DNA of 64,000 nucleotides from Ruditapes philippinarum (GCF_026571515.1 NW_026859508.1:62001-126000), one strand, 5' to 3'; positions 1 to 51,763 are shown, numbered from the stretch's first letter. Notes: generated by a model from the letters alone, not told the origin. A program made the numbers and translations.

Positions 1-536
1 ATCAGTTCGAGTGCAATCAAGTTGTCATACTTATTAATATATAATTTGAAAGAGTGTTATTGTTCTTATAGTTAGAGTTAATGAACGTTCAGAAGGTAAA
101 GACGTATCATTTAGCATTGCCCATGAAGCTGTATTCATTTGTTCACGTGTCATTCATATATTTGACATGTAAAAATACTTTTTATATAATTCATAATATA
201 TAAAATTATACAAAACATATTTTTATCCGTTAAATATATTAACCAAAAGTTAAATAACATTAAAAAATTATAAATAATTCTCATAATATTTTAAGACTAC
301 ATTTTGATTGATAAAGCTACTCACAGCATGGGAAGGGATATTTTTTAATTCGAAACGTTGCAACCAAAAGTTGTCTCCCCTTCACGTGGTCATCTTTATG
401 AACTTAAGGTATTCTTTCAGAATATGCATGCATTTCTTGACGATAAATATTCTTAAAAATATCGCGGGCATTAATTTAACATAAAATATTCCTTAAAACA
501 TTGTGGTCATTTTTATTAATATAAGATATCCTTCAG

Positions 537-1332
537 ATGTTGTTGGCACTTTATCTACACAGTCGAAAGTAGATATGAACCTTGATGTCAAGTTTGATGT
601 GGCGTCGTTTGACGTAAGAGTTGCCGGACCTTTGGCAAGCATAGGCTATCCCCACACGTACCCCTATAATGTGTTCTATATTTGGAATATAACGTTTCAG
701 AACAGCGTGCCTTTATTACAATTTACAGATATATCCCTACGAACATATGAGGTAATGGATGTAATGTAAAAGCCTACATCCGTCACTTACTCTTGAAAAT
801 TCTAAATAACATATCTTTGAATATTTTACTTGGAAAACATTTGATGTTTATCCTAGGTAATTCTTACCATACTATTACACGTATAGATGGACAATAAGGC
901 TTTTTTTAAACATTTCATTTTTTTCTAGAAGTTTTGGATATTTGACAAATTGAATATATTTAAACAATTACTTACGAAATCTATGAACTTATGTATATAG
1001 TTATGTACTTTGATGCAGCTCTTGTGTCCTTCAGGAAACGAATGATTTACCTAACATGGAATGTAGAGACACCATCATCGTAACTGGCTTTGAAATCGAA
1101 AACCCATTCGTCTTTTACAAACGATACTTTGCGGATTATTCTAAGCTGTACTTCCCTTACCAGTATGGGTCAAGGCAACGCGAATTTCTAACCAGTGATT
1201 TCAACGGAAAAATGCCCGCTTATTTTTCAATGCGTTCAAGAGGTGAACCCTTGTATCTAGCTCTCTTGTCGTGTTCTGCTCCGTTTATTAAACAACCAGG
1301 AAGAGGATTCCGAGTTCATGTTATTGAATCAG
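537..1332 (+). CDS. GPCR exons encoding CUB domain 1
   Basis: Exons 537-751 and 1035-1332 read [22 protein letters not shown]...LLQFTDISL...CRDTIIV...SRGEPLYL...GRGFRVH, matching the CUB consensus SPGYP..YP.N..W.I / L.F.DF.L / GRGF. Confidence 0.75.
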
Positions 1333-4300
1333 GTCTGATTTTTTGTTAGTTTTATGAATATTTATTTCCTAAGTACTCAAATTGACAGTTTATTTTGAGT
1401 GCAATATAGACAAGTGGTATAATAAATCAATGAAATCTTTTCTACACGCATTGACGTTGACTTTGAAGTAAAATCAGTAAATTTTTTTAAAATGACTGTA
1501 TGCTCATTTATTGTTTTGTTGTTAAGATAGATAGACTATTTTAATAAAGTTTGACCAATAATTGAAAAATATAAAAAAATGCCTAAAATATGAAAAGACT
1601 GCCTCCACTCCTTTTATAATAAATCATGTGTTGTCGATACATTATGAAGGAAATTTAAAGAATTTCCGGGTGACACGTGGATTATTAAATAGTCATTAGT
1701 TGTTGAGTATGAAATTGGAAATAAATATGGCAAAATGTAAACTTATTTTGAATTTTTCCTGCATTCTCAGCATCTACACTTGGACGGGCATAATGTCACT
1801 TTACAGACGCTCTTGGGATAACTTCTTTGTTGATTAGATACGGTCATTGCCAAAGTAATTCACTATAAATGGAATACCTCGCCTACTTATAATAAATATT
1901 TTAATTGTCTTTTATCTGTCCCATACTATATTGTATAGTACATTAACATTGAATTAATTACGGTTTGTACGACAAATGTTTTCTTTGTGACTCGATCTTG
2001 TGCTTAATACTGCGTATACAGATAAAAAAAAAATCCTTAATCTTTCTTTTTAACTTCAAAATAGCCACCCTGAATGTTTGATAGTTTCAACATATATACA
2101 AAACCAAAATAAAGTGCACGTTATTTTCAGAATTTCCAAACTGTTTTTCAATCGACACGGCAGCAACATCTAGTTATTGTTATGAACAAGTCATGCTTAT
2201 AATAACACCAACATTTCTTGGAAGAGATGACGTCGACTTTCAGAAAATCAAATATACCATTGCTCCTTCTGACACCGCTCTTCTGGTGACTTTTGAGATG
2301 GTAGACTTTGATATCAGCTGTTATTCAGGTATGACTTCTAAGTGTTTCACAGTCCTTGTGAAGCTAAAATGAGCCGCGTCATGACAAAACCAACATAATG
2401 GGTTTGCGACCAGCATGGATCCAGACCAGCTTCCGTGCAGTCTGATCAGGATACATGCTGTTCTCTACTTGTTATAGGGTTTGTAAGCGAACAGCTTGGA
2501 TCCTGATCAGACTGCGCGGATGCGCAGGCTGGTCTGGATCCATGCTACTCGCAAACTCATTATGTTGGTTTTGTCGTGACGCGGGTCAAATGTAAATTAC
2601 CTCATACACACACTAATATACCTTAAAGGAAGTTTGTGAGTTTTAAAGTAGTAATAAATTCCTTACAATGTACTCGTATCTTAATGATCCGCTTTATGGT
2701 CTATTTGCAACTGAGATGTGGTGTTGTTACTTAGAATTATAACATATTATTGAATAAAGGGGACCCTTAAATTGTGGAGAACATCTGTTGTCTTGATGCC
2801 CTGTCTTTATTTCGAGACTTTTGAGACTTACATATATGTATTATACAGTTTATATTGTTCTTTTGCTTTCGAAAATAAGAAACGCTCTGTGAAAATAATA
2901 TATAAAGTTGATTTATTGATTAATGAAATCAAAAATTTTACACGTATTTGTTAAACCATCTATACATGTAGATCTACAATGTATTATAAAATTATTGTTG
3001 TTTTTGTTCCTTCTTTCTCTAGGATCTTCTTTTTCCATTGCAAGTTTTGCGGAACCTCAACGCTACTGTAATCTTAATGTTACACACGGGAAGCTTTTTT
3101 ACTTTGCACAGGGTCTATCCATTATTTATTCAAAATATATCCTCCCTACATCTGAAAAGCAAACCTTTCCTGAAGGTTTTCACATTAAATACAACACAAT
3201 CTCGAGAAATAAGACATTTCCATACGTCATAGAATCACAGGATGGAAAAGGTAAACTATTTTGTATACTTGAAACTAGTCAAAAAAGAGATACGTATGAT
3301 TCTTTATCCATATATGATAAGTTATTCCTATTTGATCTCATTTTGTGCAGTCTCGTTTTTTCTTCTTAAACATACACTGAACTTATACAAGCGGCAAAGG
3401 CGAATCAGCGGAGAAAAAGGTAAAATGACCAGTTTCAGTAAGGATATCATGTTCTTATTATTTTGATATTATCACAGTTCAATTAAAATTTAATAAGTGT
3501 CAATATGTAATTCATTATGTACATCTTTTCAAGGGCAAATTAAAACTAAAAAGTCTGATTTTACCATTTTAAACAATGTTTTGATAAAACTCAATGTATG
3601 TGTTAGAAGAAGTACATCATCCCAAATGATAAGGTCGGACTTCTGTCCGCAATGAGCCATTAATCTCCAAGAGAAGACAGAAAGTTGACTATTTTGAATG
3701 TCATTTTGCATTCCGAGTTCTTGACGACATGCCTTTCCAGCGATACCTGTAAATGCACCATCAATTGTTTAAAAATTCAAATTGAAATCCAGTGGTAGAT
3801 CTTCAGTGGTATTATATAAAAATGACAAATGACAATAAAGTTGCACAAACTAGGCTCTGCATCAAAATAAGAATAATAAAATCCGGAAGAATTGCTCCAG
3901 AGCACTTAAACATCCGATGAGAAATGTGATAGAAGTTGTATACAGAAGTTTTTTTATATTGTATAAAAAGATAGGTATTTGTGAGTTAAACTGAAGCACT
4001 TGTGAAATGTAGAAAGAAATGTTATATTTATACTTTTACATATTTCCTTTGTTAAAATAACAGAAACAAAATAAGTAAAAAATAAACAATTCAGAAAACT
4101 CAGACAATATTGGCTTGTACTCTTGATGACAATAGTTCTGCGAGAGATTGTCTGACATCATTTTTCAAATAGAGGAGGAGTCTCGCAAATTAGGACGTCC
4201 TCCAGACGACATCAGCCAATGTGACAGATTGTCTGACATAATTTTTGAAATAGAGGAGGAGTCTCGCAAAATAGGACGTCCTCAAGACGACATCTGTCAA

Positions 4301-7300
4301 TATGACAGATTGTCTGACATATTTTTTGAAATAGAGGAGGAGTCTCGCAAAATAGGTCGCCCTCCAGACAACATCAGCCAATGTGCCAGATTGACTGACA
4401 TATATTTTGAAATAGAGAACGATTCTCTCAAAATAGGACGTCCTTCAGGCAACATCAGCCCATGTGACAGATTGTCTGAAATCATTTTTGAAATAGAGGA
4501 GGAGTCTCGTAAAATAGGACGTCCTCCAAACGACATCAGCCAATGTAATGAGTAGATTTTTTTTTCGCTGATTAATAATACTAATCATAATAATATGAAA
4601 CTGCTTTGCGTTTTATTTATTAAATAAGATAAGCTAGTGTAGTATTACTTTGACTAATATATGTTTATCGTTCTTAATGTTTTAGATGAAATTAACACTT
4701 TTACATTAAATTAATACTTAACTTTTCTTTAATAAATAAATCGTCAGTTTTTCTTTTCTCTACAAAAGTTGAAACCTGATATATTTAATCAAGAAAACGG
4801 CACAATTGGTGACTGAATTAATCAGTGTGTTTTTGTTGTCATTATATGATGATACCCAATTAGCTAGCTTTAATAGTTTTTTATATCCACATTTTGTAAT
4901 TTTCATGATAAAATAATCACGGTTTTGATGTAACATTATACCAGTATATACAACAACTCTTGGTCATGTGAAGGAAGAAAGAGGACAAAAAGATGTTAAT
5001 TAAAATGATTGTTTAAAAAAAATTATTTTACCGGACATAAACCCTTTTATATGATAAATTCTTTTCACTGTGGGCGTTTGGATAAAACGTCGGTTCTTTA
5101 ATAATCCGAAAAATCAGTTTGTTGTTCAAAAACGGTTAAAGTTGGGGCAATAATGTTATTGTCAACGTCTAGTGATACCATTTAGCTGCAATTTGATATA
5201 TAAGTGGCGGCGTGGCGAAGTGGTTAACATGTCAGACTAGTAATTACTGACCGTGTGGGTTCAAACCCTGTCAGGGGCAAGCCGTTGTTTCCTTGAGCAA
5301 GAAACTTTACATTCATTGCTAAGTACTGGTTGGTTCCAGGAACGGATTCGAGAGTGTTTCAATAAGCTTATAGCTTCCAACACAATCGAACTAAAATAAA
5401 TTTGTATAAACTAATTTGATATATAACTTTATATGATTTACATAAGAATGACTGCAATTTTGACTTATACTGGACAAGTGACATTCGGCCGATTTGGCGT
5501 GTTCAACCCCTTGTCTATATCTTATGTATACAGTACAGTATTTTTTTCTAGAATTTACATTTAACACCATAGTGCCGAGTCCCTGTGGGTTTAACAATGC
5601 AGTGCCTTAACGACAAACTCATAATAGAACTGCATTTATCTTTATCAGTATCGGCGAAAATAAAACGATATTGGTATTTGTCTAAAATGGAGCAATGAAC
5701 TTAAATTTACAACATCAGTTTACTTGTATTAGTTTATAAGATACATTTTTTCACGATAATTGGTTAATTTGTTTGTCTAAATTTTACCTGTTTACAGTAT
5801 GCAACGATGAAATCAACAAGTGCCTTTCGTTTCAAAGGATTTACAAAAAGTCTTGGATGGATGCCGCTGAGATATGCAGAAGTCAAGGAACCTCTCTCGT
5901 CACCATAAAGTCTGTGAAAGAGTTTAACTTTTTGCATCATCTTCTTCTTGCCCTGTTTAGAAAGAGGGTATACTTTGAAGGCCACAAAAGTTTGCTTTAT
6001 ATAGGTATTTAAATGACAAAATTTTAACTGATAGTTTCAGAAATATGAAACATAATCTTTCATAGATTTAAGTAAAACTATCATGTTTATCATGTTGACA
6101 TTTTTCCGCGTTTAACCTGTGATGTTTTTTTGAATTTGTAATCAACACTGATTGTTCATATTGCAAATGTCTTAAAACATTCTTTCTTAAACTTTATCCA
6201 GGTTTGAGCCGGTACATTGACACATCTGGAATAAGCCATGAGCACTGGATTGATGGAACTCCCTTGACATTTACTGCTTGGTTTGTAAAACTAAACCTAG
6301 AAGGCTCGAAATAATTTCATTGGCATCTCATATATTTGTACAGAGTTATCTTTGAGCCTTTAAAATTTTTATTCATGTATGATTATAACTGTCATAATGA
6401 CTGTCATAATTTTAAAATGTTAGATTTTCTCTCTCTCTTGCAAGTTTAAGTAAATTTTATTCTTTACCCAATATGTATTACCGAAGGATTTTTATATCAA
6501 TGCGAATACTTATAGCCACACGGGCGGACAAAATGAATGGCACAACTTGAGAAACAACATTAAGAATTACTCTGAGCAAGCAAGTCTCTGGAAGACATGA
6601 TCCATTACTTATAAAAAAATCTTACTCGTGCTCATACAGCAAATCGAACAGTAATTTTGAATTTAATGTAATTGAAAAGATGACAAATAAACTAACTACT
6701 TTAAACTAACCATTTTGCACATCATTTTTAATTATATAAATACGTGAACACTTTTGAATCCATTGAAGGAATTCAAATCAACCTTCTGAAACCATGATTA
6801 AACAGTGCACAAAAATGGTACTACCTGTCAATGAGCAAAATAAAACAAACATTTGGGAGACAACTACCTGCACAGAAAAATCTGGAGCCTATATGGAGTT
6901 AGTGTGTGAGCAGAAAACTAAGCAATATACACAAAACAATACGGGTAAGAAATCTAATTTAATAGCTGGTTGATTCAGACGGTAAATTAGGACTGAATGT
7001 GAATGAAATAAACTTTTCACCGCAATCGTCAGCAGTGGAATTATATGTTTATTATTCAGAAACTATGAAAGAGATAATGAGAATGCGTTTAAATATTTGT
7101 TTGTTTTATAGATTTTAAAAAGCATAAAATCGGCTATTTTCCCCTATTTTGCCCATGTTATAACGGGACCAAAGCCATGTGTTAACATAGTCACGCGCGC
7201 TTTTTATAGCCCGGTTTTACTTATGCGCAATACATACAGGGTTCAGTAAACAAACATAAAAAATTGACGAGGCCTCAAGCAGACTCGTTTTGATGAGCAT

Positions 7301-10300
7301 TTTAATGATTCAAAATTTACTTTTATGCAATATCTGAATGATTTGTAAATGCTTATAAACAGAACTGTTAATCTGGTTTGCAGAATTTGATACAGGCTGT
7401 TACAGTGGAACGGCATCAAAATACAAAGGAAATCAATCAATATCAAGAAGTGGATTGAGGTGTCAAAGATGGGATAGCCAAATTCCTAACGAACATGAGT
7501 TCCTAAACCGTAGGAAATTTCCTGACAAAAGGATTTCTGACGCCGCAAACTATTGTCGTTCGCCAGATAAAGACGTGAAGCCGTGGTGTTTTGTAAACGA
7601 TTCTATGATAGCGTGGGATTATTGTCCTTTGGAGCGATGCCAGACTGGTTTGTACAGAAAGAAAAGTTGCAATGTTCCATTAAAAGGTCTTGAATACAAA
7701 AACAAGCAGATTTCAAAATGTATAGGTGGCACGATAGCTCAGTTGGTTAGACCACTGATTATCACTCCACTCCTGAGTTCCCTGGTTCGATCCTTGATTA
7801 TACCCTTGGGATTTTCCAGAGACACTTTCAGTGTTTCCCACCTACCAAGAGGTGTACTGGTAGGATATTCAGATTATCCTCGCATGTATCAGTGCTATAC
7901 ACTGGGCATGTAAAGGAACCTTCCTTAATGTATACAATTTATACCTGCTTAGAGTAATCGTAATCAATTCTAAAGCAGTATGATGGAGATGTGTGCTAAA
8001 ACGTCTGGGGGCAGTTTGTTTTGTTGTATTGTTGTTTTGTTGTATTTAACTCTTATAGACAGAGTACGTCTGTTATTACCTATTTGTTTCAATTCATACA
8101 CACAAGAAATATCATGTTTGTTGTACGAAAATATACTTTTGCATCATCTTGATAAACAAAGATTGAATATAAATGATTCACTGCATATTCTTGTTTTATT
8201 CTCTCTTGCTACATTTACAGAAAGTACTGATTTAGCCAAGGATGATACGACATTGTTCAAGTGTTCTAGTGGTGAATGGATGTCATTTAAAGTTCGATGT
8301 AACGGTGCTCCCGAATGTCTCGATGTCTCGGATGAAGACAATTGCACAACACGTACGTTCCTTGCGTATTTTTGGTCTTCTTTCAATGCTATTGAAAGTG
8401 AAGGGTGGTGTATTGTGTCAACTATTGCAATAATATGTACTATATATCTTTTATACTTGATATACATGATAACTTACTTTCAGTACGTCTATGATCTAAG
8501 AAGCACATTGAAATCATATGAAATACCATTTTCATAATTACATTTTACAAGATTTAGGCTTGAAAGTTCTTTCCCTTTTTCACTTAATTAAAAATATGAA
8601 TACATGTGTACAATTATGCTATCCTTTAAACGGATATTTTTCAAAACATCAAATGCATGCGTAGCCTTATAATACTAGTTATATTGTTTGTATCAATTTC
8701 ACAAAGCTCTCTTACCTCAGCATGTTTAACATCTTTTTCTTTTCCTTTTTGTTTCTTCCTCCTTTTACTGTAAAAAAAAATTGGGTATACCCAGCAAGGG
8801 AGAAACCACGCATTGAGCCTTAGAAAATGTTCATTCTATAAAAAACTTTTAAAGTCATTACTTTAAATAACATAAAAGGGCGTCCTCTCACCGCTGTGGG
8901 CTCAAATCACGACAAGATCTTTGGATTCTTTAATGTCAGGAAGTAACGAGCTAGTTTACGGAACGTCGGTTGTTCTACATAGGTGCCCTTTCATGCCTGA
9001 AATAATGCACGAAAGGGTACCTGAGGTCTTCGTCCACCTGTAATGCTGGAACGTCTCAAAATGAACTATACCACGGCGGTGCGACGTAAAACCCAATCAA
9101 ATAAAAAATCAAATCAAAGAACACAAAAATAAAGAACGAATATTGCATGTGTTTTTTCAGCTGTAAGTACATGCGAAGATGACTTTTTCACCTGTCAGGA
9201 TGGTCGGTGCATACATATAAGTTTCCTCTGCGATTTTGTCCAAGATTGCTACGATGGCTCAGATGAGTTTTGTGGTAAGAACAAATAATGACATTATTAT
9301 TATGTTTTGCCTATTGTTGCAAAATAGAGATATACTTAATCTGAAAATGATATGTTCAGTGCTTTGCCGTAATATATATATGTGACATTTTTAAAACATA
9401 ACTTTCAGTACATGGCCATGAAATTCGAAATTTGATTGATCATTGCACCCCCGTATTTTTTAAATTAGAAGGTATTTTGAAATCAGAGAATCCGTATATT
9501 GATGCAAAGCACATTGTTAAGAACTGTTTCTTTTAAGCATAAATTTAGATTTATTGCCCTTAATAGTTTTCATACTTTATTTTTTATTCTGGAAATAAGG
9601 CTATCGCCTCAGTCAGTACGTCATCTATCGGTGAATATCACATCATATTGAATGACCATACATCGTCGACTTTGAATCACTCGCGCGTATAAAATATTTT
9701 GCCTTTTGTTTTTTACGACATTAAAATATTATTAGTTTACTGTTAAACGTTACACCTGCAATGATGAATTACTTTCGTTTGCGCTACGTTTGCTTAGTCA
9801 TTGGTCTGGCGTCATCTTGTTTAAGTGTGTCTTTTTCCAACGATTCTTTAATGATCAAAGCCATTTTTATATAAAAAAACAGATATTATTGACCAGTAAG
9901 CCATCGAATATGACGTGATATTTACCGGCAGAAAATCAGATGTCATCTGCCTGTGAATATCACTTTATATTCAATGGCTCACTAGTCAATAATTGAATAG
10001 TAATTGCTTTAGTCATTGGCTCCAGAGATGCGTCATCAGTCCATACCTTATATGGAATGGACGAATTTAAGCAAACCGAGTGTTCAAGTTTCACCTTTTA
10101 ATTATTATTTTCAATATTTCCCATTTCCTTCCAAATTTTTCAAATTATTTATTGTTATGTATAATTTCTTGCTACAGCATAACTCAAATAAGTCAGAAAG
10201 TATCATCTCGTAACATCATATGTGGATAAATAATGTTAGAGTTATATGTGGATAAATAATGTTAGAGTTATTAATATTTTATTGCTTTTATATTTTTATC

Positions 10301-13300
10301 CTGAGAACAACTGTTTTATTCGTGTTAAATACAGATTTACTAAATACATAGTGCTTAATTCAAATTCAATTTGTTCTTCATCACACAATATTACTTCCCA
10401 GTTTAAGTCATTCCATGCTTTTATAAAACTTTTTTACGTGTATCAATGCAAAGCAGCAAGTGGGACTAGTTGTATTTTAACCAAAACATTAGTTGTTTCA
10501 AGGAGGACAATCTACTTTCTTTACATATTCAATAGTTTTGCATGTTGTCTTATCAGATATTAGGTTTTGAAAAATTACATGACTATTATAATAACATCGA
10601 ATACACCGAAGATCATGTTATATTGTATAATTCAAAATAATTAATAGTACTGAGAATCATGTCGGATCAAATGTTAACATAACTTTTCTTCTACAGAACA
10701 TCCAAATTGCGATTATGAAACCGAGTTCACTTGTAACAACGGTCAATGTGTACCGATTCATCAAAGGTGTGATTCTTACAAACAATGCCTGGATTCAAGC
10801 GACGAAGCGTTTTGTGGTATTATTTTTATACTTTTATAATGATAAACATATACGAGAGACACCATATATTTGACAGAAGATACATGTATGTATAACCGAC
10901 GATTCCATTATTATCAATCCGACAAACATTATCAAATATCAGTTATGAATGCTTTATTTTGTACATTTATGCTTATCAGATGTTTGTTAGTTCTTATAGA
11001 CATTTTGTTCAAGTTATTAATGCTGACCATTATTTTGTCCATGCTATAAAAATATTAAAATAATCTTCAGAAAATTCTTCAAAATAAGGAAGCCCTCAAT
11101 TAGTTCTTATTAAGCGTTTAAGGTTACAGTCAGTTTTGCCACTTGAAAAAATGTTAATTGATTGATTTATTAAATGAACATTTCTATGCTTTCATGCAGA
11201 TTTTTGCAACAATGATGTGGCGTTCCAGTGTGGAGATACGTCGTGTTTATCTGAACGACTGGTTTGTGACGGACATGTGGATTGTGTGGACGGTGCAGAT
11301 GAAAGAAATTGCAGTCAAATCTATAAAACGTGTGATGATATATGGAGAGATGGTTTAACGAAGGATGGAATTTATACTATAGGTTGGTTCTTGGTTTAAA
11401 CATTATAACAGTTTAGGTAAGACATTGCCTTATGGATGAGGTGTTGCCCAAACGTTGAGCGTCTCAGAATTGCAGCCATCGTTTAACGTTGCGTGATCGC
11501 ATGAGGGGACTAAATGGGTTCGATTTTTTTGTCTATGCATCTTTTAGCACCAGCAGGTGAGATGGTTTTGCCTCTTGGTATTGCTTAAAGTTTGTAACAC
11601 CAGATATCAGACAGAATCATGTTTCCTGTTTACCTAAATTGCGTTGGTGCTCGTCAAAAATACCATAAACATAAAAGGTTAATCAAAGTTAACTTTTACA
11701 ACGCTAAATACAATGTACCTTAAATGGACTTGTCTTTTTAAACATAGACGAATCATTTTACAGCTTCTAGTGGTACGGTATAAAAGCATACAAGTGTACA
11801 AAATTGAATTGTATATATATTTATATATATGACATTTCTTGTTATAAAAAGTTAGTCATATACTCTGTGTTATTAAGTTAGTCTACTCAGGCGGAACAAT
11901 GAAAGGTTACGTATCTGTGACGTACCCGAGCACTTGTTTAGGAATTTCACAATAGTAATGGTCTCAATTCTTGTTGCAGCTTTCTTTTAATTGCCAATGT
12001 ATATTTCCAAAATATATGAAGAAAAAAAAAGTTTTTTTCAAGCGCATATAATTTTTTTTGCTTCACATATTATTGTATAAATATAACCTTTTTTTTAGTA
12101 TAATTTGTTTTTTGTTTTTGTTTTTTTTTTTCGTTTATTTTATTTATAATATTTACTTTATCCACGCATTTATATCTTGTTTCAGGCGAAGGATTTAAAG
12201 TACGTTGTACCTTCAACAGAACAACTGGTTTTATAACTATGAAATTTCTCACCAGTGACTGGAGGAGGTACAGCAATACAAACACATTCTCGGTTGATCC
12301 GCCAAGTAATTCTGTGATCAACGATGCTACCCAACACGGTTATATCTGCTCGCAAAAGGTAAATACCTTAATTTCTTCGTATGTTAATATACATACAGAA
12401 TTTATTTAAGTTCGATTTTATAGGAAGCTGTTAGTGAAAAAGGAGTGTAAATTTTCTTGCTCAAGGAGTGTAAAGTTTCTTGTTTAGCTTTCCCCTGACA
12501 GGGTTTGAATCCATGCGGCAAGCGAGCGATCCTTAGAATTCTAAGCCGATCCGTTAACCATTTGACCATATATCCGCCACTTTTATTTATTGATTGACAT
12601 CTTAAATTCTAATTTCTTTATTGGTTATTTAATACCTAGCAATTACAGTATATCGTTTGTTATATAACACAGTTATAACAGCGCTTTTGATTGGATAACC
12701 GTGAACTATATCATAATGTTTATCTTTATCTATGTTCCTTTATCTATGAAACAGAAAATTGTCTTATTAAATTCTCTGATGTGTTATATAATAGAAATAT
12801 TGTTGAAGACAATAGCATTGATAATAAATAGAATTTATGTGTTTACCAATGTGTATATTATGAGTGATTTAATAAGCATTTTACCTTTTTTATTTAAGTA
12901 CTTTGAACGTTTTAAAAGGGGAAAGGAACGAGTTATGGCATTTGACAATGAGTTTTCGAATGAAACAATTACTTCAAGTGGAGAGAGAATAAGATATCTA
13001 AACATCTTTAGACGGCAAGAGTTGTTTTGTATTATTTAAATTTACCCCCCATCCTCCCCAACCCTCTAGTTCTCTTCGCCAACACCCCTTTTCGTTTGTA
13101 GGCCTATTAATTAACCCTTTCTTTAATTTCATTGTCGGTTTCTATTATGTATTATCATAATAGTGTCCTGTTCGTATTTGGGAACTGCTGGACCCTGTCT
13201 TGCTAGGTCGTTTGGGGGTTGCGGTCATTGCACGCCGCCCTTCCTTGTTGATCTTCTTTATTTGTACAATTGAAGCATGTTTTTATTTTCTAAAACAATG

Positions 13301-16300
13301 AATTATATACATATAATTAAAAATGTTTTGCAACAATTGTGATGGGTTATAAACCCTTTCAAGACACCAAGTTTTATCAAATAAATACATTAAAAGGGCT
13401 AATACCTATCATATTGTTTATTGACGAAATCGTAAATTTAAAAATTGTAGACAAAAGCCTTCTTCCCCTCTATATTCTAGGGCTAATTCGGGTAATTTAG
13501 TGTTTAGGTACGATGCATCGGCAGGATCGTTAGGCCTTATCACAGTCGGTGTACCAGAATCGTTTAACGAAGAACATAGATTAGTTATAGATGGTGCTGA
13601 ATGTATCAAAGGTAAGAGTAGTAGCAATGATATTGATGGTAGTATACATGTATGTATACTTGTATCTAACGTGTCTCAGTATCTTCTTATTATGTGATGT
13701 AAGATGAAACACAACAACCATTTTTGTATTACTTACTCGCTTTAGCTGGTACTGATACTTACTGGGAAAATACTTCAATAAGCATAAGGTTGTTTCCAGT
13801 TTATTTCTTTTTTCGGTTGATTGTAGATGTCATGTATAATGTGATGTTGTCTATGACGAATAAATTATGTTTAAACCAAAGACAAAATGTTGTATGCAAG
13901 TTCGCAAAATAAAAGAAATGCTTCATTAAGATTCAAACCTTATATTATCAACTTGAAGCTAAGTCATATCTCCATATCCCAGAGGCTAGTGAGGCAAGTG
14001 TTACACACAAACCATGTATACCGTTTTGCCATACTTCAAAATCCGTATGATTTACTTTAGAATTCGATATTTACCGACAAGAGGTCATTGAATATTCAAA
14101 TGCCCCACGTCAATATTGCCAAACAATATAATCTTATGATTTTAAAGTCAAAACAATATGTTTGTATAGGAAGTTGCATTTAACATATAGTAACAAAACG
14201 TAAAACATATGCAAATGATTCTCTTTTTTAGCTTTAAAGAATTGGGACAAAACAGTGTTCTGCCAAAAGGGAATTAAATCGAAATTGCAGAAAAAGTGGT
14301 GTTTAGAAACATCAAACAATTATTTATATGACCATTATATACAGAATTCATGCCTTTATCTTCATAATACCGGTTGCGGTAAGAATTTTCATTATAATAT
14401 TTATATGTAAAATTCATTTAAACTGAAGAAAATTATTTTTTTTTAAATTTATCAGAAGAATAGTCATTATTTCCTGAGTTAGCTGATTTCAAACAACATA
14501 TGAATAGTATAAGGTATGCTAACAAATGTATAAAATGTGAAAACAAAGATCAACGAGAAGGGCGGCACTAACTAAAGGAACCCTCGATAAATTAACAGCA
14601 CTTGGGACTACCGCAAGGTGCCCAACAGAGCACCAAGAAAACACTGGAGAGGGAATTTAAGACTTTTGCTATAAAACTTAAATATTACTCAATTATAATG
14701 TTTTGTTTATTTCAAATATAGAGGATATTTGTTTGTAATGCATGTAAAATTGAAATATAATTTCACTGAGTGAACACCAGATGCAATATTTTCACGAGTG
14801 GCGTAGCCACGAGTGAAAATATAATAGCTGGTGTTCACGAATGAAATATATTTCAATCTTATATGTAAAACAAATAAATTTTCTTTTTATTTTATGCTTT
14901 TAAGTGATTTTAAGTATTTTTTTACTGATTTTGCCGCGAAACGTCGCGCATTCTCCTTTGTGACGTCATTATATCATGACGTCACATCATAAGTTTTGAA
15001 ATATAGTTCTGTTAAATTTCTCTAATTTTGTTAGATTTTTAACATGATGTATGATGACATAGACTTTCTTTTCCTAAATAAGCATATTTACGTATGACGG
15101 CATTCATTTCTGCCTGTTATTCCATTTGGTTATGATTTTCTTTTCATCCGCATTCAGATAATTATAGTCCGGCTACAGTGAAAATTATATTTTATAAATT
15201 TCACTAGTGGTTTATCAGAATATAATCATCTGATATATTGTAATACAACACTGGAAAGCATGAAATAAAGCATGATAAACAAGTATACAAAAAAAAACCG
15301 TGAAATTCCTTTAAACATGCAACTTGTTTATGTAACAGTTCAGTAGTTTTGCATTTTGAGACTGCGGGTGTCAACCTCTAGTACTATGGGCCGTTTTTGA
15401 ACAATTTCATTTTCAGTGTTTTGGTAAACTGCATCCAACCAACTGATAAAAAAATCTGTACAAAATAACACTTTGCTTACTTGTTTGTGGATACGTGTGC
15501 GTGTGCATTCGCTTGTGTTTGTGCTGTTGTTTAAATATGTGTAGAGGGCGCGAACACATTCATATTCAGTGTAGTTTAATATATACTTTATTTCTAGAAA
15601 GAAACCCATGGACCGAAAACATATTTTGTCAGCAGGGAAGACCTTGTGATAAAAGACTTCACTGTATCTATGATAAGGATGATAATGGACAATTATTAGG
15701 CTGTAGATCGTATGACCATTTGCAAAACTGTGGTAACGTCTCAAATAATACGATTTATCTTTAAATTAATAGTCTACCTATTACATTTTGTATATAATTT
15801 TAACAAATAAAGCTTTAATTGAAATGGTATTAAACGAAACATGCAATGTTCTTATAAAAAGCATACAAAATATTTGATTAAACAGCTTTAATTATCATAG
15901 CATTTCTCCCAGTATTCTAACGTAAAAATTTATAACTGTATATTGTCAAGCTATGAACGAAAAGCTGGGCTTTAATTATTATCTTGACTTTAAGAAGCAA
16001 ACATTTTAATTCATACTAATGTAAAAATATATTCAACACAAATATCACTATTTTTCATACACTAGGTATTAAAAGCGGGATAAATAAACAAATTTGCTAC
16101 TTTGCTTATGATTCTCATTGAATTGACGGTATGTACCATTGGTCTCAGGCCTTGAACTTCAAGTCCAACTTATTGCAAATGACCATTACAGCATACTTGT
16201 TTAGTTTCAGTGTCCGCTATGTCCTGAACGCATGGTGATTACATCATATCACACTACGTTATGAGCGATATATGCCTAGTTTAACTGAATTAGATAGTTG

Positions 16301-19300
16301 TATAATCTATATTTTTATATTCGACGACGTCTACCATTTAAGGTCTTATAATGTTATTAAATTGTGTAATGACATCAGAAAGTAACTTTTCCTTACAGAA
16401 GACATTGCGTGCCCTGTTCATCATTTCAAATGTCCAAAAAGCTATTGTATACCCATGAAGTATGTATGCAATGGTAAGAGCGACTGTCCGGATGGTCAAG
16501 ACGAACATTTTTGTGGTAAATATAAACATCAATAAAACTATGGTCTGTATTTAGAATTGCTGACGTACAAGCAGAAATATGTTGAAAAATTGAAGTATAT
16601 ACTTTCAGATTGAATATGTTTCTTGTACTTGTTTCATTTGTACTGCAGATCCCTTTCATTTCATTTTCTTTACACTGCTTTTCAATGTTACATTTTGTAT
16701 TTTGTAGATTGTATTAACCCGGACAAAAGTGAAGTAACGATATTGTTCCCTGGACCAAATATTATATCTAAACAAAGATCAAAGGTGTTGCAAGAGGTGG
16801 CATCTAAGCTTAGAGGCACGTTGTTCACTAGAAGTTCCTCTACAAAAATATTGAAAATGATGAAAACTGAGGACTCAGGGGTTTATCCTTTCCATTTTGT
16901 TGGCGCTAATGCTTTATCCAAAAGTGAGCACACGGACAAACTAGAGACGGGCCATCTTATCAACTATACTGATGAGTTTGACATTAGAAAACGGAAAATG
17001 GAAATATTGTTTGACAATAAGGATGAAAGGTCAAGCAAGGGACTTATATGGCTAACAGATAGTCTATATGTTACTGAGGCCGAACGAGACATATTTCATA
17101 ACAATCTTGGTACAAATGCTTCAAGATCGATTAAAAAATATAGAGTTATAATTAACGCACGTCCATATAAAGAGATAGATATTCCACGTCAATCGCCTGT
17201 TACAGAAATTATGCTAAGGGACAAGGATATTCTAGGAACATTGGGTTCCAGATTGTTTCCTTCCATATGCAAAGGTAAACATCTCAGTAAATACATCTCC
17301 CTTCCCTTCATATACTATTGTATTTAAAACATATGATAATATGTTAACCTGGTAATACAACAAATAAACCGTGCTTTGATCTTCAACAATCCATTCTAAG
17401 AGCAAGCTTGTAAGACACAAAACTGCCTGTAAAGGTTATTTGTTTTTATTTTCATCAGGAAATTGGTTAAATACACAAAAGGCAGTGCTTTGACTTGCAT
17501 TATGAATTATATTCCAGTGCTTTTAAGTTTATTGCAAATAATTTCAGTCAATTTTGCACTTTAAATTATAAATATTTGATAGTCATATGTCATTAACTTG
17601 TTTTTGTCGTTTAAACTACAGCGAGATCATTTAGCGTTTCCGATATGTGCATGTTGATGTATCTACAAAATCATGTTGGTTGGTACGACTCATGTATGAC
17701 GGTCTTAGCACAACTCATAACAGTGTGCTTTGCAATCAGATAAACTTGTTATCCTTTTGAAAACAAACAAAAGACAATGTGAATTTGTTAAATGCTTGAC
17801 AATTTTACATGACAATATTTTTGCAATACTTTATTATAAGGCATACTGTGCAAAGAGTTCACAATTTGAATAACATGATCATAATGAAATTAGTGACTAT
17901 ATAACATTTAGGGTATGACATTCCGATTTCTTTTATTATTATCTATTTGATTAATATCTAGGTAATCCAGTGGAATGTGAAGGAAGATATCGTTGTAGAT
18001 TAAGTCTGGTTTGCATTCCTTTGTCACAGCTATGTGATAAGATAAAACATTGTCCATTCGGTGATGACGAAGAGATGTGTGACTTCGTTTGTCCTCGGCA
18101 ATGTGTGTGCCAGCCGTTAATTGTCAACTGTTCAAACTTGCTTGACCGAAATGATACAATTAATATATCATCATCGACGCGAGTGTTAGACGTAAGCAAT
18201 AGTGAAGAACTTGGTAGAGCTATTGTCTCAGATGAAGGAAGTTCACACCATGTACCCTTACTGATAAAGTTAAATGTATCAAATTGCGGAATTCAACATC
18301 TGTCAAAATATTCTTTCACTTTTCTAAGAAACTTGTTAACATTAGATATCAGTTTCAATAAGTTGAATGTTTTAGTTAGAGACACTTTTGTATTTCTAAA
18401 GCATCTTCAAGTTTTGAAAATGAATGGAAATGTGTTACTGTCTGCAATAGAGCCTGGGACATTCAATGGCATTTCAAATATTTCAATAGCAGTCAATGAA
18501 GCTAAAATCAAAGTTATAAACAAACACACTTTCGATGGCATAAACATAAATCATTTAGATTTATCCAATAATAACATTGAATCTATAGAAGACGATGCAT
18601 TCGAAGGACTTAGTTGTAGATCAATTGATATAAGAAATAATCCAATAAAGGTGTTTGGTAAGAATATATTCTATGGGATAGAAGGGCTGACAAATTTGAT
18701 AACACCACAGTACAAGTTTTGTTGTCTCAAACCAGTTTATCTTCTAGAAGATAGCTGTTTTCCTTATAAGGATGAATTCTCCTCGTGTCAGCATCTGATG
18801 AGGAACTCGACCCTTCAAACATTGTTATGGGTGATTGGACTTCTCGCACTGTTAGGGAATATTTTGTCCATTTGTTATAGACTTTATTTTGACAGCCAAA
18901 GACTTAAACTTGGTTACGGTGTATTCGTTACGAATTTGGCATTGGCAGATCTTTTAATGGGAATATACATGCTAATAATTGCTATCGCAGATCAAATTTA
19001 CATGGACAGGTATTTATATATATTTTTTTGTTTTATTCACTTTTATTTGAAACAATTATTTACTAGGATCTATTTCTCATTAACCAAATGTCTTGTTTCT
19101 CACCGAAGATTACAACATGTCGTTACTAAGTTAAGACCGCAGCAGTTACATGTTTCCGGAAATTTGACTCAGCCAAACCAAAAGACACATTTTTTTTGTG
19201 AAAAGGAATGTATATTTTTGTAATAAAAAGTAACTGAAATGCCAAAAAAGAATGTTAAAGGTAAAGAATATTAATCATAACATAATGATTTTTCATTGTA

Positions 19301-22300
19301 TCATACTTAATCAAATTAAAAGACTAGTCAGGCTAGGCTAAGATCAATGATTGCTATATTAGAAAATAAGTTTGATTTCCTGTAAAATGTACCGGGAAGA
19401 ACTGAATATAAGAAGATCTACCATTGGCCATTTTGAATTACAAACTGGAATCTGGGAATCGCATTGACTATTATAAAAAAGAAAACAATGTTAAGGATGG
19501 TTCTTGCCATTTTAAAATTAAACTTAAAGGATAGTTCTTAAATAAAATCAAAACGATAATTCTTGCCATATGTTCTTGTCATTTGCATCGAAGACCTGTA
19601 TATGCAAATTAACCAGTTTTACTTTTGCCGAGTATTATGTTTAAAGAGGCTTCTTGTTTTTCATAATTAGCAAACATATAAAGTTTTCTTTATCATTCCA
19701 GATATATTGAAGCGGACGAATATTGGCGTAACAGCGTGTGGTGTAAAATTGCCGGGTTTCTGTCGACAACATCATCAGAGGCTAGCGTCCTTCTCATTTG
19801 TCTTATCACACTAGACCGATTACTTGTGATCAAATTTCCATTCGGACAGTTACGATTTAAACCCAAATCGGCTTTATATGCTGTAATGGTTTCTTGGATA
19901 GTCTCAATAATAGTTGCGATAGTCCCTATATTGCATACTGATTATTTCAAAGGTCGCTTCTATAGTACCTCCGGCGTTTGTCTTGCTTTACCTTTGACGA
20001 ATGACAGACCTCCAGGGTGGCTTTACTCCATGTTCATTTTTGTCGGGTTTAATATGGTAACCTTTACACTGATTGCCGCTGGACAGGTACTTATTTACTT
20101 TGAAGTGAAGCAGCAATCCAAGAGGCGATTGAAAATGCGTACATCACGTGCTAATGATCTGAAAATTGCAAGGAATCTCCTACTTATAGTTACAACTGAT
20201 TTTATCTGCTGGTTCCCAATTGGTGTGATGGGTAAGTTGGTTCCTTTTATGTTACAATGCTTTAAATGGTGAGAATTTAATAGCGCTTCAGTCGGTGTAA
20301 CGGGCATGGGAATTGTTGCATGAACCATAACTGATTCCATTAACTTAAGTGTTGAGGGTTGATTACCGCAAAACCAGTGCAATATATAGGGCATGACAGT
20401 TTATGCAATTCTTTGATCTTTCGTGTCATGCATTTTTATTTAGATAAGTGATCTAATTTTGACGTGAAGAATAACAATTACATGTATCAATTTTCATACA
20501 AGTCCCCACTTTTGTACCTATTTCGCAACATAACTTATTGACAAAAGAAATATATCTTTGTTTTAAAAACAACAAAGAAATACATGATCCTTTTTCTAAT
20601 TGAAAATCTTTTTGTATTGACTAGCATTCGTTTTCTATTTTATACCTCTTTCTATTTACAGGAGTCCTTGCTACGATGGGTCACGTGATTCCTGGGGATA
20701 TGTATGCCTGGACCGCTGTTCTGATTTTACCAGTAAACTCCGCTCTTAATCCATTCATGTATACGTTCTCTGCAATCTTTGGAAAGAAGGTATAAATTTG
20801 AGAGTTGAAATATTTTAAATTGACTCTTGTTAATCATTGTTTTGAAAATAAAGATTTCTCGTCTTACATTTTATACATAAATATTCACGAAGAGCTCTTT
20901 TTAATGTTGTGATGGAAGAATTATCAAATAAAAAATCTGTTAGAAACAACGGCAGAATAAATGACAGTTATCAAGGTATTCTATTTCAATAAATACCGTA
21001 CAATTATTAATAGTATTGGTTAACAAAAACTTGTTTAAGCTTATCTAAACAATGATTAAGCAGTAAACTTAATGCATATGTGACAAACTGAACATACCAA
21101 CATAAGAAGTAAGAAGTATAGCGTGGTCTATCTATCTTTTGTTACAGGCATCTCCGTCGTGAAGATGTACATATAATTTTTGTGCCAATTAAATGTTAAA
21201 AAGGATAACGCAAACATATTATTGTTCTGTATTCCATATCTGAAACTTTTGAGCATACTTATTATTCATTTCTTTTGCCATTTCATATGGCGAAAACATT
21301 GCAAAATTTGCAATTATAAACAGCGCCAACATATAAAGTGAACATGGCAAATGTGTTAACTAAATAAATGATGATTTTTGTGTTCGTGTTTTTTAGAAAT
21401 TCCTTCCGAACATTGACGAACAGACAAGGAAAGAGTTATTAAAAGGTTTGAATACAAACACTTCTAAGCTATTTTTAGTAAAGAAAATTTATATTTGTGT
21501 CAAAACGTTGTTTTTTTTTTTCATCCAAAAGAGTCGAAGCTTTTTAGACATGGTCAACAGCACAAAGTAACAATTTGTACTTCTATGATTTATATGAGTG
21601 CTTCTATTTGAATAGTCAAATGTTTTTTATTGGCAAAAGGAAAGTTCTCGCAAGTTATAACGTCATTATTTCAGGGAAAATGCGAAATGGATCTCGTATT
21701 GTCGTACCTTCGCGCCCATATGAGGATAGCATTATAATTGCCCGGTACAAGACATCATTTTTGATCCACAAAATATTCATGATTCAATATTTCTTCGTGT
21801 TATTTCAAAGAAATTCAAGTCAAGATGCAAAAGAACCTTAAGTTAACGTCGTTCTTCATTAATATTTGTCAACTAACAAATACGCTGGCAATTATTTTCT
21901 TTCAGATGTTGGGCCTGCTGTACTGAACATTCTGCCATATTATTCCGGGAAACAAAGTGACGGTGCAGTGATAACGCTACGGGAATTATTGGATACTCAA
22001 CATCTTACATTTCTTGATTGTGCTTTTATTGTACGCCATCTTTCCAACTATCTTACCATTCTTCATGGAGACGGTCTCGTGCTACAGCCAATCAATGAAG
22101 ACAATATTTTGGTCCATGTGAATAATTTCAAGCAGGTAGTTTCATATAAAAATCTCAATTGCTATAATACCTGTAAAAAAGAAGAAAATAAACACAAAAA
22201 ATTCTTTGTTCCGGAATTATCGCTTCAATAATTTGCCAATTTTTATTCTTCTAAAGTTATTCTTATTTACGTTTTCTGGTTATTAATTGTCCAATTTGGT

Positions 22301-23107
22301 AGTTGCATACAAATAACTTGAACATATTTATTGTCTTTTCGTTGGCTTCTTACGTCATTGATTACATAACGAAATAACAATTGCAGTATTTAGGCGTGCA
22401 GCAACAATGACTAGTGTATGCTTTCAGTATCTTCACTAACATACAGCCTATCTGGACCAGTATAACTTCTGCACACCCATACAGTCTGACCATTTGCACA
22501 CACATACATTCTACCTGGACCAGTATAACTTCTGCACACCCATACATTATGTCCATCTGCACACCAATACAGTCTGACTGGACTAGTGTAACGTTTACAA
22601 ACATATACAGTCTGATATGGCCTGTATAAAGTCTACACATACCCGGACTAGTCGCAAGTCTACACACCCGTCTCACCGTCGCTCCTCAATTTTTTTACTT
22701 TGATATCACTACTACTTGTATTAAACAACATATATTTCCTAATTTAACAACGACAAGTCTACTGCACATACAAATTCTGCAATGAATAGATGACGAATCA
22801 GATGAAGATNNNNNNNNNNNNNNNNNNNNNNNNNNNNNNNNNNNNNNNNNNNNNNNNNNNNNNNNNNNNNNNNNNNNNNNNNNNNNNNNNNNNNNNNNNN
22901 NNNNNNNNNNNNNNNNNNNNNNNNNNNNNNNNNNNNNNNNNNNNNNNNNNNNNNNNNNNNNNNNNNNNNNNNNNNNNNNNNNNNNNNNNNNACGTGCAGG
23001 TGTCTGTAACGCCAGTTTTGTCATCAAAGAAGGTTGACCAAGAAGAAGATGTGTATAAACTGGGACTAATAACGCAGAAATTGTTGCAGAATGTCGGGAA
23101 ATGCTGA
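537..23107 (+). CDS. GRL101-like (type C LGR) mosaic GPCR with C-terminal pseudokinase; 5' end lies upstream of the window. Inferred exons: 537-751, 1035-1332, 2131-2328, 3023-3250, (3351-3419 tentative), 5798-6004, 6202-6280, 6769-6944, 7384-7647, 8221-8352, 9161-9274, 10697-10816, 11200-11382, 12186-12358, 12899-13014, 13481-13611, 15598-15732, 16399-16515, 16708-17274, 17962-19009, 19702-20231, 20662-20789, 21397-21445, 21906-22135, ~23000-23107
   Basis: All listed exons have AG/GT (one GC) ends and join in one continuous frame of ~1,870 codons. They contain LDLa repeats, LRRNT (CPRQCVC), LRRs, the hinge KFCC...[15 protein letters not shown], and a rhodopsin-class 7TM (GN in TM1, NLALAD in TM2, DRL in TM3, CWFP in TM6, NSALNPFMY in TM7). 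LDLa+LRR+7TM is the GRL101 layout. Confidence 0.9.
2131..3250 (+). CDS. GPCR exons encoding a divergent CUB-like domain 2
   Basis: Exons 2131-2328 and 3023-3250 read [14 protein letters not shown]...RYCN...EGFHIKY; phase 1 junctions. Confidence 0.6.
2369..2589. mobile_element. Palindromic MITE, family P (copy 1)
   Basis: ATGAGCCGCGTCATGACAAAACCAACATAATGGGTTTGCGACCAGCATGGATCCAGACCAGC...inverted at the other end; ~90-100 bp arms. Confidence 0.85.
4142..4546 (+). repeat. 81-bp minisatellite, 5 copies, open in one frame (27-aa repeat)
   Basis: Unit GACAGATTGTCTGACATAATTTTTGAAATAGAGGAGGAGTCTCGCAAAATAGGACGTCCTCCAGACGACATCAGCCAATGT; no indels between copies. Confidence 0.95.
5204..5412 (+). mobile_element. 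tRNA-derived SINE (CORE-like), full length with 14-bp target-site duplication
   Basis: A box TGGCGAAGTGG, B box GGTTCAAACCC, body GTTTCCTTGAGCAAGAAACTTTAC; perfect direct repeat AATTTGATATATAA at 5190-5203 and 5413-5426. Confidence 0.9.
5798..6944 (+). CDS. GPCR exons encoding a C-type lectin domain
   Basis: Three exons read KCLSF...[28 protein letters not shown]...YIGL...[18 protein letters not shown]...C...WETTTC...LVCE. Confidence 0.85.
7384..7647 (+). CDS. GPCR exon encoding a kringle domain
   Basis: [28 protein letters not shown]...[16 protein letters not shown]...WDYCPLERC has all six kringle cysteines; symmetric phase 1-1 exon. Confidence 0.92.
7725..7920 (+). mobile_element. tRNA-derived SINE (second family)
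   Basis: A box TAGCTCAGTTGG and B box GGTTCGATCC, followed by a non-tRNA body ending CTGGGCATGTAAAGGAACC. Confidence 0.6.
8221..11382 (+). CDS. GPCR exons encoding four LDL-receptor class A repeats
   Basis: Exons 8221-8352, 9161-9274, 10697-10816 and 11200-11382 each contain F.C..G.C....CD...DC.D.SDE..C-type motifs. Confidence 0.9.
8878..9105 (+). mobile_element. tRNA-derived SINE (third family, Meta-SINE-like), 5' truncated
   Basis: GGAAGTAACGAGCTAGTTTACGGAACGTCGGTTGTTCTACATAGGTGCCC...GAAATAATGCAC...GACGTAAAACCCAA plus A-rich tail; related copies occur elsewhere in the window. Confidence 0.7.
11320..13611 (+). CDS. GPCR exons encoding a fibrinogen/Caspr-like module
   Basis: [30 protein letters not shown]...CSQK resembles the start of fibrinogen-C/Caspr/COLFI-type domains; the remainder is divergent. 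Confidence 0.5.
12390..12580 (-). mobile_element. Same SINE family, degenerate copy
   Basis: Reverse complement of the 5204 element (TTTCTTGCTCAAGG, CCCCTGACAGGGTTTGAA, CCGCCAC). Confidence 0.75.
14718..15269 (+). mobile_element. Non-autonomous ~550-bp dispersed element with subterminal palindrome (copy A)
   Basis: Near-identical inverted copy at 32950-33498; internal hairpin ATTTTCACGAGTGGCGTAGCCACGAGTGAAAAT. Confidence 0.85.
15598..16515 (+). CDS. GPCR exons: GRL101-type variant LDLa repeat and a canonical LDLa repeat
   Basis: [23 protein letters not shown] (15598-15732) and [35 protein letters not shown] (16399-16515). Confidence 0.85.
16708..17274 (+). CDS. GPCR exon encoding a degenerate VWA-like domain
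   Basis: A 567-nt phase 1-1 exon bounded by cysteines (DC...SIC). It contains EVTILF (beta1), [18 protein letters not shown] (cf. F...GAR...KVLIVLTDG) and the terminal [14 protein letters not shown] helix. Confidence 0.6.
17962..20789 (+). CDS. GPCR exons: last LDLa, LRRNT, ~7-8 LRRs, hinge and 7TM domain
   Basis: ORFs 17970-19223 and 19736-20272 plus exon 20662-20789; LxxLxLxxNxI repeats and rhodopsin-family TM motifs. Confidence 0.95.
21397..23107 (+). CDS. GPCR intracellular tail encoding a truncated pseudokinase C-lobe
   Basis: TLRELL...[37 protein letters not shown] matches kinase subdomains V-VIb, with HRD replaced by [13 protein letters not shown] matches subdomain IX. Spliced in frame after NPxxY; stop TGA at 23105-23107. 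Confidence 0.7.
22405..22665 (+). repeat. Degenerate tandem repeat next to the gap
   Basis: Repeated CTGGACCAGTATAACTTCTGCACACCCATACA variants. Confidence 0.8.
22810..22991. other. Assembly gap (182 N)
   Basis: Run of N. Confidence 1.
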
Positions 23108-30300: not shown

Positions 30301-30433
30301 CAAAACGGAAGAATGGAAATGCAGTGAAATTGTTGATCTTGACGACCTTAAAACGTCTAACTATTCAGAAACTGACCTACCGCCCTCTTACAGATCACCG
30401 CGAAATAATTCGCTTGCGGACGTAAAAAAGTAA
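24392..30433 (+). CDS. Shaw-like voltage-gated K+ channel, paralogue A (exons 24392-24681, 24998-25172, ~27854-27970 garbled, 29512-30433 garbled); pseudogene or mis-sequenced
   Basis: T1 domain (VKLNVSGTYFE...GELHIPPGVCPGAFRREMEFWELDYDCLHSCC) is intact. S4 (AQVFRALRLFRVVKNVRASKVL) and S6 end (LPMFVNNFLTLYQYSCVNESIE) are recognisable and match paralogue B, but S1-S3, S5 and the pore are corrupted by homopolymer-rich sequence. Confidence 0.85.
25831..26939. mobile_element. Foldback element, ~1.1 kb with ~400-bp imperfect inverted arms
   Basis: e.g. TTTTTTCGAAAAACGGAAACTGTAGTTCCGTGTA vs TACACGGAACTACATTTTCCGTTTTTCGAAAAAA; TTCGAAAGTAGTGGAGCCAAAGGGCAAGAGATGGAGCGAAAGG vs its complement at 26560-26602. 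Confidence 0.9.
27996..29085 (+). mobile_element. Helentron-associated (HINE/pearl-like) element with ~150-bp internal tandem array; opposite orientation to the other four
   Basis: TTTTTAGC...ACCTGAGC start, CGTCCGTCGTCCGTCGTC microsatellite, ~6 repeats containing AAAAACTAGGTCAC, end GGTGAGCGATATAGGGCCATTTTGCCCTGTTGTT. Confidence 0.8.
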
Positions 30434-51688: not shown

Positions 51689-51763
51689 CCAAAAACATTG
51701 CGTATTATGGACATAAAAAATTTATACAATAATAACATAAATATAAACAAGATTGCATTTGTA

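Follow-up and report, generated by a model that had tools for sequence, protein, structure and literature searches.

A window of 64,000 nucleotides from Ruditapes philippinarum (GCF_026571515.1, NW_026859508.1:62001-126000; coordinates below are counted from its first letter) carries a gene for a mosaic G-protein-coupled receptor (GPCR). The encoded protein joins a long series of extracellular modules and leucine-rich repeats (LRRs) to a seven-transmembrane (7TM) domain of relaxin-receptor type and ends in a cytoplasmic fragment of the protein-kinase fold. We read it, with about even confidence, as a one-chain type C receptor of an old bivalve and ambulacrarian family, in which an RXFP1-like switch would be combined with a protein-binding antenna and a docking tail. 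That the locus is one gene, encoding ~1,900 amino acids inside the window from an N-terminus further upstream and yielding a single full-length transcript, is quite probable. The half-kinase tail, a feature absent from the original prediction made on this DNA, is more surprising than the mosaic ectodomain which that prediction described.

The window is AT-rich, spliced animal DNA, and RNA reads were mapped over positions 1-20000. Splice sites and phase assign 24 plus-strand exons in 537-22135, followed by a final coding exon that runs to 23107 and whose acceptor and first codons are hidden in a 182-base run of N (22810-22991). The extent first proposed for the gene, 537..19009, has to be revised at both ends. 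Position 537 is an internal phase-1 acceptor within an open frame, so the gene starts upstream and its 5' exons fall outside the window, while 19009 is merely the end of the exon for transmembrane helices (TM) 1-2, and the gene continues to about 23107. Assembly of the coding sequence, suggested in the original prediction, gave a stop-free frame of 1861 amino acids when an exon at 12899-13014 is included; the claim of one continuous frame stands to that extent and depends on this unproven exon with its GC donor. In the public annotation the locus is split. A protein search with exon 16708-17274 returned one match, the R. philippinarum RefSeq model XP_060603871.1 (P0001; 912 residues, labelled 'GRL101-like'), which is 100% identical and begins at 16455, at an internal Met, and continues through to the gene end. 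Exon 12186-12358 retrieved a second RefSeq model, P0045 (177 residues, 'complement component C9-like'), which uses the 12899 acceptor and then reads through to a stop at 13039. Both models break in the middle of a domain, P0001 beginning inside an LDLa and P0045 stopping inside a fibrinogen-like (FBG-like) module.

The receptor core is encoded by exon 17962-19009 (phase 1-2; Pfam), which holds the last LDLa, an LRRNT, the LRRs, a short type-C hinge and TM1-2 and is spliced to the next exon in an RNA contig, by exon 19702-20231 with TM3-TM6 and extracellular loop 2 (ECL2), assigned by Pfam and RXFP1 alignment, and by exon 20662-20789 with TM7 and its NPxxY motif, taken from P0001. On the receptor protein, 7tm_1 is matched at E 2e-29, a rhodopsin-class 7TM closest to the relaxin receptors, and among solved structures RXFP1 matches best (E 7e-63, versus 1e-34 for FSHR). 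LRR_8 is found in three stretches, and the short hinge that follows aligns nearly without gaps to RXFP1 up to TM1. In human RXFP1, ECL2 acts as an internal agonist that is restrained by the ectodomain and aided by hinge residues L402/L403, and these residues and C563-F564-P565-L566 of ECL2 are needed for signalling (Erlandson et al., 10.1101/2022.01.22.477343, accessible text). The window receptor aligns at both sites, with L/M at the hinge positions and C-L-A-L in ECL2, a pattern found in 25 of 30 rows of the alignment; what is kept is a C-hydrophobic-x-L motif and two hydrophobic hinge residues. On these features the protein is assigned, as a sequence-based prediction, to the type C (RXFP1/GRL101-like) leucine-rich-repeat GPCRs.

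Upstream of this core the module order is CUB-CUB-C-type lectin-kringle-four LDLa-FBG-like-atypical 4-Cys-LDLa-VWA-LDLa-LRRs. The order given earlier, CUB-CUB-CTL-kringle-LDLa4-FBG-like-LDLa2-VWA-LDLa-LRR, agrees with it at every point except 'LDLa2', the first of which is the 4-Cys module and the second a true LDLa. CUB1 is divided between exons 537-751 (phase 1-0; Pfam and family profile) and 1035-1332 (phase 0-1; family profile), and CUB2 between 2131-2328 and 3023-3250 (each phase 1-1; relatives' matches and profile). Pfam finds CUB in the first exon only (E 0.21); profiles of the relatives, built with the window excluded, recover both domains at independent E-values (iE) of 7e-9 and 1e-12 at Z=1000. 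The C-type lectin spans 5798-6004 (phase 1-1; Pfam), 6202-6280 (phase 1-2; matches in relatives) and 6769-6944 (phase 2-1), the last with a weak acceptor and supported by the family profile and the edge of an RNA-run contig. Searched as single exons, the lectin is matched by Pfam at E 1.8e-4, the kringle (7384-7647, one phase 1-1 exon) at 4e-25, LRR_8 at 8e-22 and 7tm_1 at 6e-22. Pfam likewise finds LDLa in six exons (E 5e-13 to 9e-4), all phase 1-1 but for that of the receptor core: 8221-8352, 9161-9274, 10697-10816, 11200-11382, 16399-16515, which contains the start Met of P0001, and 17962-19009. All six LDLa lie upstream of the LRRs; that they share a chain depends on the GC joint being genuine.

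EPN/QPD and WND-type motifs mark calcium-dependent C-type lectins. They are not present in the window lectin, which has QPS and WET, versus QPD/WHD in most of the scallop orthologues and in those of Lytechinus; with the motifs drifted in this way, the antenna is read as protein-binding and not as a classical calcium-dependent lectin. The FBG-like module starts in the fourth LDLa exon (Pfam, family profile) as a fibrinogen/COLFI-like segment and continues through 12186-12358 (phase 1-0; matches in relatives, P0045), the inferred exon 12899-13014 (phase 0-2; strong acceptor, GC donor, one unproven joint) and a C-terminal part at 13481-13611 (phase 2-1). It is homologous to its counterpart in bivalve relatives (iE 3e-12), and no Pfam match was found in either the window exons or the relatives. 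The module of paralogue P0018 scores 0.92-0.93 in Atlas to neurexin-4/COLFI clusters, in which COLFI is annotated on 16-31% of members, and the fibrinogen/COLFI affinity is a lead only.

The atypical 4-Cys module (15598-15732, phase 1-1) has no Pfam match and is conserved in the family (iE 4e-15); an RNA-run contig has the same edges. A possible exon at 14232-14378 (phase 1-1), with four cysteines and good splice sites, may be a decayed copy of this module. It can be skipped in frame, is missed by the family profile and has just a 10-residue match to 15598-15732. The VWA module occupies a single, Cys-flanked phase 1-1 exon (16708-17274) that is contig-spliced to the next exon. Pfam gave no match on the VWA exon, as on the FBG-like, 4-Cys and tail exons, and the VWA assignment comes from the predicted structure (predicted local distance difference test, pLDDT, 72), which matches integrin I and von Willebrand factor A domains. 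In Foldseek the best E is 7e-6, with 95 matches at E<=1e-3; in VIA the top five are all of VWA type (Z 9.1-9.6; best Z 9.6, root-mean-square deviation, rmsd, 3.8 over 138 aligned residues), with folds of TIR and flavodoxin-like type no more than 1 Z below the top. The DxSxS motif of the metal-ion-dependent adhesion site (MIDAS) is absent in 17 of 17 VWA domains. Exon phases bear out the exon-shuffling origin and the predominance of phase 1-1 exon sets proposed earlier: of the 19 introns between 537 and 19009, 15 have phase 1 and the remaining four fall inside the CUB1, lectin and FBG-like modules, and the kringle and VWA, each one symmetrical 1-1 exon, are exactly the modules gained or lost between lineages.

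Behind TM7, a linker exon (21397-21445, from P0001) leads to two exons, 21906-22135 and 22992-23107, that together encode a domain of about 100 residues with the fold of a protein-kinase C-lobe fragment. By structural match the first covers the alphaD-alphaE-catalytic-loop-beta7 region and the second, whose end with the stop codon is also given by P0001, beta8 and an alphaF-like helix. The model has a pLDDT above 90 across most of residues 41-130. In VIA, every one of the 50 top rows is a chain of kinase fold (highest Z 11.2, with an rmsd of 2.1 across 90 residues), the match being limited to the C-lobe core (model residues 27/38-136) without N-lobe or activation segment. Every Foldseek match listed is a kinase (best E 3e-3), and an independent model in the Atlas agrees with a kinase-like fold. 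Sequence searches give fainter signals: Pfam has weak kinase-clan matches in the Glandiceps and Solemya tails, with PK_Tyr_Ser-Thr at E 0.004 in that of the hemichordate (Glandiceps), and phmmer of the tail exon against the PDB returned STK33 only, at E 1.3. A PDB profile search with alignment A2 matched LDLa and LRR proteins throughout and is uninformative on the tail. None of 36 tails contains GxGxxG, HRD, DFG or APE, so the tail cannot be an enzyme. GPCR-kinase fusions in Dictyostelium and oomycetes carry a kinase-type domain on the 7TM tail, and pseudokinases have the kinase fold without the catalytic motifs; the clam tail differs from both in comprising ~100 residues of C-lobe only, on an animal class A receptor.

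An alignable tail of 110-220 residues follows TM7 in 28 of the 36 rows, seven others being short and one unrelated. A profile of nine non-venerid tails picks up the tail of the window receptor (iE 3e-12) together with 13 of the 16 long tails from venerid/mactrid models (below 0.01), and one built from six deuterostome tails alone finds seven bivalve tails below 0.01 in a 45-protein database. Judged by these profiles, the tail is conserved from bivalves to ambulacrarians.

The same holds for much of the ectodomain. Among long proteins, a search with P0001 gave 37 matches, of which the 34 with a 7TM were analysed (1 Ruditapes, 12 Mercenaria, 3 Mactra, 5 scallop, 1 oyster, 1 Solemya, 1 Bulinus, 5 sea urchin, 1 hemichordate, 3 sea star and 1 unnamed protein); family-profile E-values were computed for 35 proteins. 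Three LRR-only matches (P0036-P0038) were excluded from every count, and the 2838-residue P0017 was rejected as a true receptor, having two 7TMs and being visibly two fused genes. The window exons match relatives in the same order. The complete order from CUB to the last LDLa occurs in one chain in 10 of the 34, all within the 16 venerid/mactrid models, and the Mercenaria model P0006 reproduces it module for module. In P0006 and P0010 a signal peptide may be all that precedes these modules. In all seven scallop, oyster and Solemya models the order is kringle-F5/8-CUB-CUB-CTL-LDLa4-FBG-4Cys-LDLa-LDLa, six with ApeC in front and none with VWA, and Lytechinus, one Diadema model and Glandiceps have CUB3-CTL-LDLa4-4Cys-LDLa-LDLa. 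A core of CUB-CUB-CTL-LDLa4-4Cys-LDLa-LDLa-LRR-7TM is thus common to scallops, oyster, Solemya, sea urchins and a hemichordate. Searched against 1.84 billion representatives, the VWA exon gave six matches, five of them relatives; the sixth, P0044, was dropped as a repetitive protein. The 18 VWA-bearing rows form one clade (support 100/99) in an LRR-7TM tree of 37 rows that was midpoint-rooted and comprised mosaic relatives only, without canonical GRL101, and VWA is found in none of 18 other long proteins scanned.

As far as these gene models show, the architecture is a family trait and not a one-off. The original prediction of a lineage-specific receptor applies to the VWA and post-lectin kringles, which are confined to venerid/mactrid clams, and not to the core. 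The simplest history would start from this old core, to which bivalves added ApeC and FBG-like modules; in venerid/mactrid clams a one-exon VWA would then have been inserted between adjacent LDLa and one to three kringles placed after the lectin before the gene multiplied. Residues 1694-1774 of the Mactra model P0012 form an extra kringle between the FBG-like and 4-Cys modules that is absent from its near twin P0013, a recent module insertion or loss.

Continuity of the chain turns on the interval between 12358 (phase 0) and 13481 (phase 2), where one exon is required. When 48 open filler candidates were aligned to the two closest paralogues (mean score 123, standard deviation 15), the two best began at 12899 (163 and 157) and had poor GT donor sites. 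The filler favoured here scores 141 and ends at 13014 with the donor G|GCAAGA, in which GCAAGA is one letter off GTAAGA, the commonest donor of this gene (4 of 24 donors). RNA contigs show two joints among those listed, 17272 to 17960 and 19006 to 19699, both within P0001. Three further contig pieces break off where exon edges are predicted (6768; 15597-15731; 16707), and the letters past these points are unplaced; these fit splicing and do not identify the partner exon. The first aligns from 6768 and is preceded by 227 letters. Exon-bin depth is ~0.3-2 in a single raw RNA run, of which ~4% was sampled, and the mapping, dominated by high-copy intronic repeats, does not settle whether there is a single transcript.

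Several observations weigh against a single, RXFP1-like receptor chain. The filler at 12899 stands only modestly above the 47 alternatives, and its GC variant is outscored by the 163 and 157 variants with other donors, and no read or contig on window 1-20000 bridges 7647 to 16399. The supporting relatives are themselves gene predictions, with P0017 as a fused example. RXFP1 F564 and P565 are replaced by L and A, and the window copy, alone among the 30 rows, has H instead of the conserved hinge D. Among the matches listed for the tail, none in Foldseek reaches E 1e-3 or better. The absence of bridging RNA, the non-canonical donor at 13014 and the two RefSeq models, one ending at 13039 and the other starting at 16455, would suit a locus that is split or truncated as annotated, in which a secreted 5' protein ends at 13039 (or the GC donor is a disabling haplotype variant) and a VWA-LDLa-LRR-7TM receptor stands separately; a regulated version would produce the full receptor plus a secreted decoy. 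The mid-domain breaks of both models speak against such a split, as do the 23 of 23 long bivalve relatives in which a single chain holds both the FBG-like module and the receptor downstream of it, and the contig over 15598-15732, a stretch 5' of the RefSeq start, which has unplaced letters at either end. We consider the split distinctly unlikely.

For the one-chain receptor, function can be proposed by homology. The LDLa-LRR-hinge-7TM unit retains the elements of the RXFP1 switch, and by analogy the ectodomain would restrain ECL2 until engagement of a ligand frees it into the orthosteric pocket, activating the G protein. The long module chain, variable among paralogues, may serve as an antenna that binds proteins and is directed at large ligands, extracellular or bound to surfaces, such as secreted glycoproteins, mucus or matrix, or cell surfaces, at sensory or mucosal epithelia. 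The tail, which as a C-lobe fragment can neither bind ATP nor catalyse, may dock signalling or trafficking partners.

The original prediction suggested a multi-ligand sensor, possibly for immune or chemosensory recognition, and a pattern-recognition GPCR in which the lectin and FBG-like modules, with the apextrin-C and F5/8 modules of relatives, bind microbes and trigger G-protein signalling in haemocytes, gill or mantle would be consistent with the ApeC and F5/8 found upstream in many relatives and with the many diverged paralogues (12 Mercenaria models among the 37 matches). In the accessible text of two papers, genes that bear the GRL101 label, and that may or may not belong to the mosaic family, are listed in two rows of differential-expression tables for snails challenged with schistosomes (PMC13619432) and have undergone expansion in the Manila clam (PMC6831834). 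The sugar-site motifs are lost in venerid copies and exon depth is low in the RNA run, and we regard this function as rather unlikely. A hormone receptor, whose LRRs bind an insulin/insulin-like growth factor (IGF)-like peptide as in RXFP1/2 while the extra modules merely capture or localise the hormone or a carrier, would accord with RXFP1 as the closest solved relative and with the IGF proposed by Veenstra as GRL101 ligand (10.1101/2021.04.15.440029). According to the accessible part of that paper, each ambulacrarian species has a single GRL101, composed of LDLa and LRR alone, and a dozen diverged paralogues with variable ectodomains would fit a single conserved hormone poorly; this appears quite improbable. 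A bolder extension of the one-chain antenna receptor is that the family represents an unrecognised, bilaterian-old rhodopsin-type class in which a shuffled antenna, a G-protein 7TM and a half-kinase adaptor are combined, giving clams a surface-recognition repertoire, with the kinase remnant docking or completing a cytoplasmic partner. We put this forward as a speculative, unlikely but conceivable case.

In the accessible text of the papers on it, GRL101 is described as LDLa plus LRR (PMC4079206, PMC6267866, PMC6573481, PMC2396169, PMC6831834, PMC13619432, PMC13403566, PMC11521371, 10.1101/2021.04.15.440029); the same set reports that GRL101 is expanded in apple snails as well as in the Manila clam and is expressed in snail and starfish sensory organs. 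The original prediction's description of canonical GRL101 as LDLa repeats and LRRs alone agrees with this literature. Lymnaea GRL101 (LGR type C2) resembles the clam receptor in its several LDLa, LRRs, short hinge and relaxin-receptor-like 7TM, and RefSeq labels the 3' fragment accordingly; it differs in having 12 LDLa and 6 LRRs only (10.1101/2021.04.15.440029, as far as accessible), whereas in the clam protein six LDLa are set among CUB, lectin, kringle, FBG-like and VWA modules, and a kinase-like tail is present. With these modules present, its ectodomain departs from the LDLa-and-LRR-only composition of the C2/GRL101 type. Human RXFP1 (LGR type C1) aligns at the hinge and ECL2 switch positions and differs in its single LDLa and in F564/P565 versus L/A. 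The bivalve, sea urchin and hemichordate models of mosaic LDLa-LRR-GPCRs (P0002-P0031) share the core order, the 4-Cys module and a homologous tail; non-venerid models are without VWA and post-lectin kringles, and deuterostome models without FBG-like and ApeC. Amphioxus adhesion GPCRs also carry kringle, C-type lectin, CUB and LDLa (PMC2246102, accessible text). Since those are adhesion-class receptors and the clam protein is rhodopsin-class with LRRs, the parallel is independent. The architecture is common, as its presence in 10 of 34 long relatives indicates, and no description of it or of the kinase-like tail was found in open papers, supplements being outside this coverage; the mosaic family appears to be undescribed.

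Within the introns of the gene, five copies of an 81-bp unit (4145-4546) stand open as a 139-residue frame with no sign of an exon, and frame 4136-4555 was rejected as a tandem repeat. An exon at 21675 was also rejected: the frame does not need it, and it is absent from P0001 and the closest relatives. High-copy repeats at ~2370-2590 (palindromic), 5200-5420, 8930-9090 and 14700-15280 have very high depth in four of four runs. Minus-strand 3664-3819 matches residues 88-161 of paralogue P0002 (E 0.003), a repeat taken into P0002 or chance. Downstream lie two tandem plus-strand BTB_2 exons (24380-30433 and 35854-42229). Ion_trans exons come after the second copy, an arrangement typical of voltage-gated potassium channels; the first, with similar text at 29401-30433 and no Ion_trans match, may be damaged. 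Further on are a minus-strand exon of a DFF40 (caspase-activated DNase) gene (57907-58245; Pfam E 5e-32) and satellite-like arrays at 49851-53412 and 61329-61997 with periods of ~166, 147 and 163 bp.

Automatic annotation fragments these genes, so that mollusc GRL101 gene counts mix different architectures. GRL101-like receptors are orphans, and deleting modules offers a test of ligand and activation in a subfamily whose paralogues vary in entire exon modules while the RXFP1-type switch is conserved. Retention of half a kinase domain by a class A GPCR in bivalves, sea urchins and a hemichordate suggests a novel partner or signalling route.

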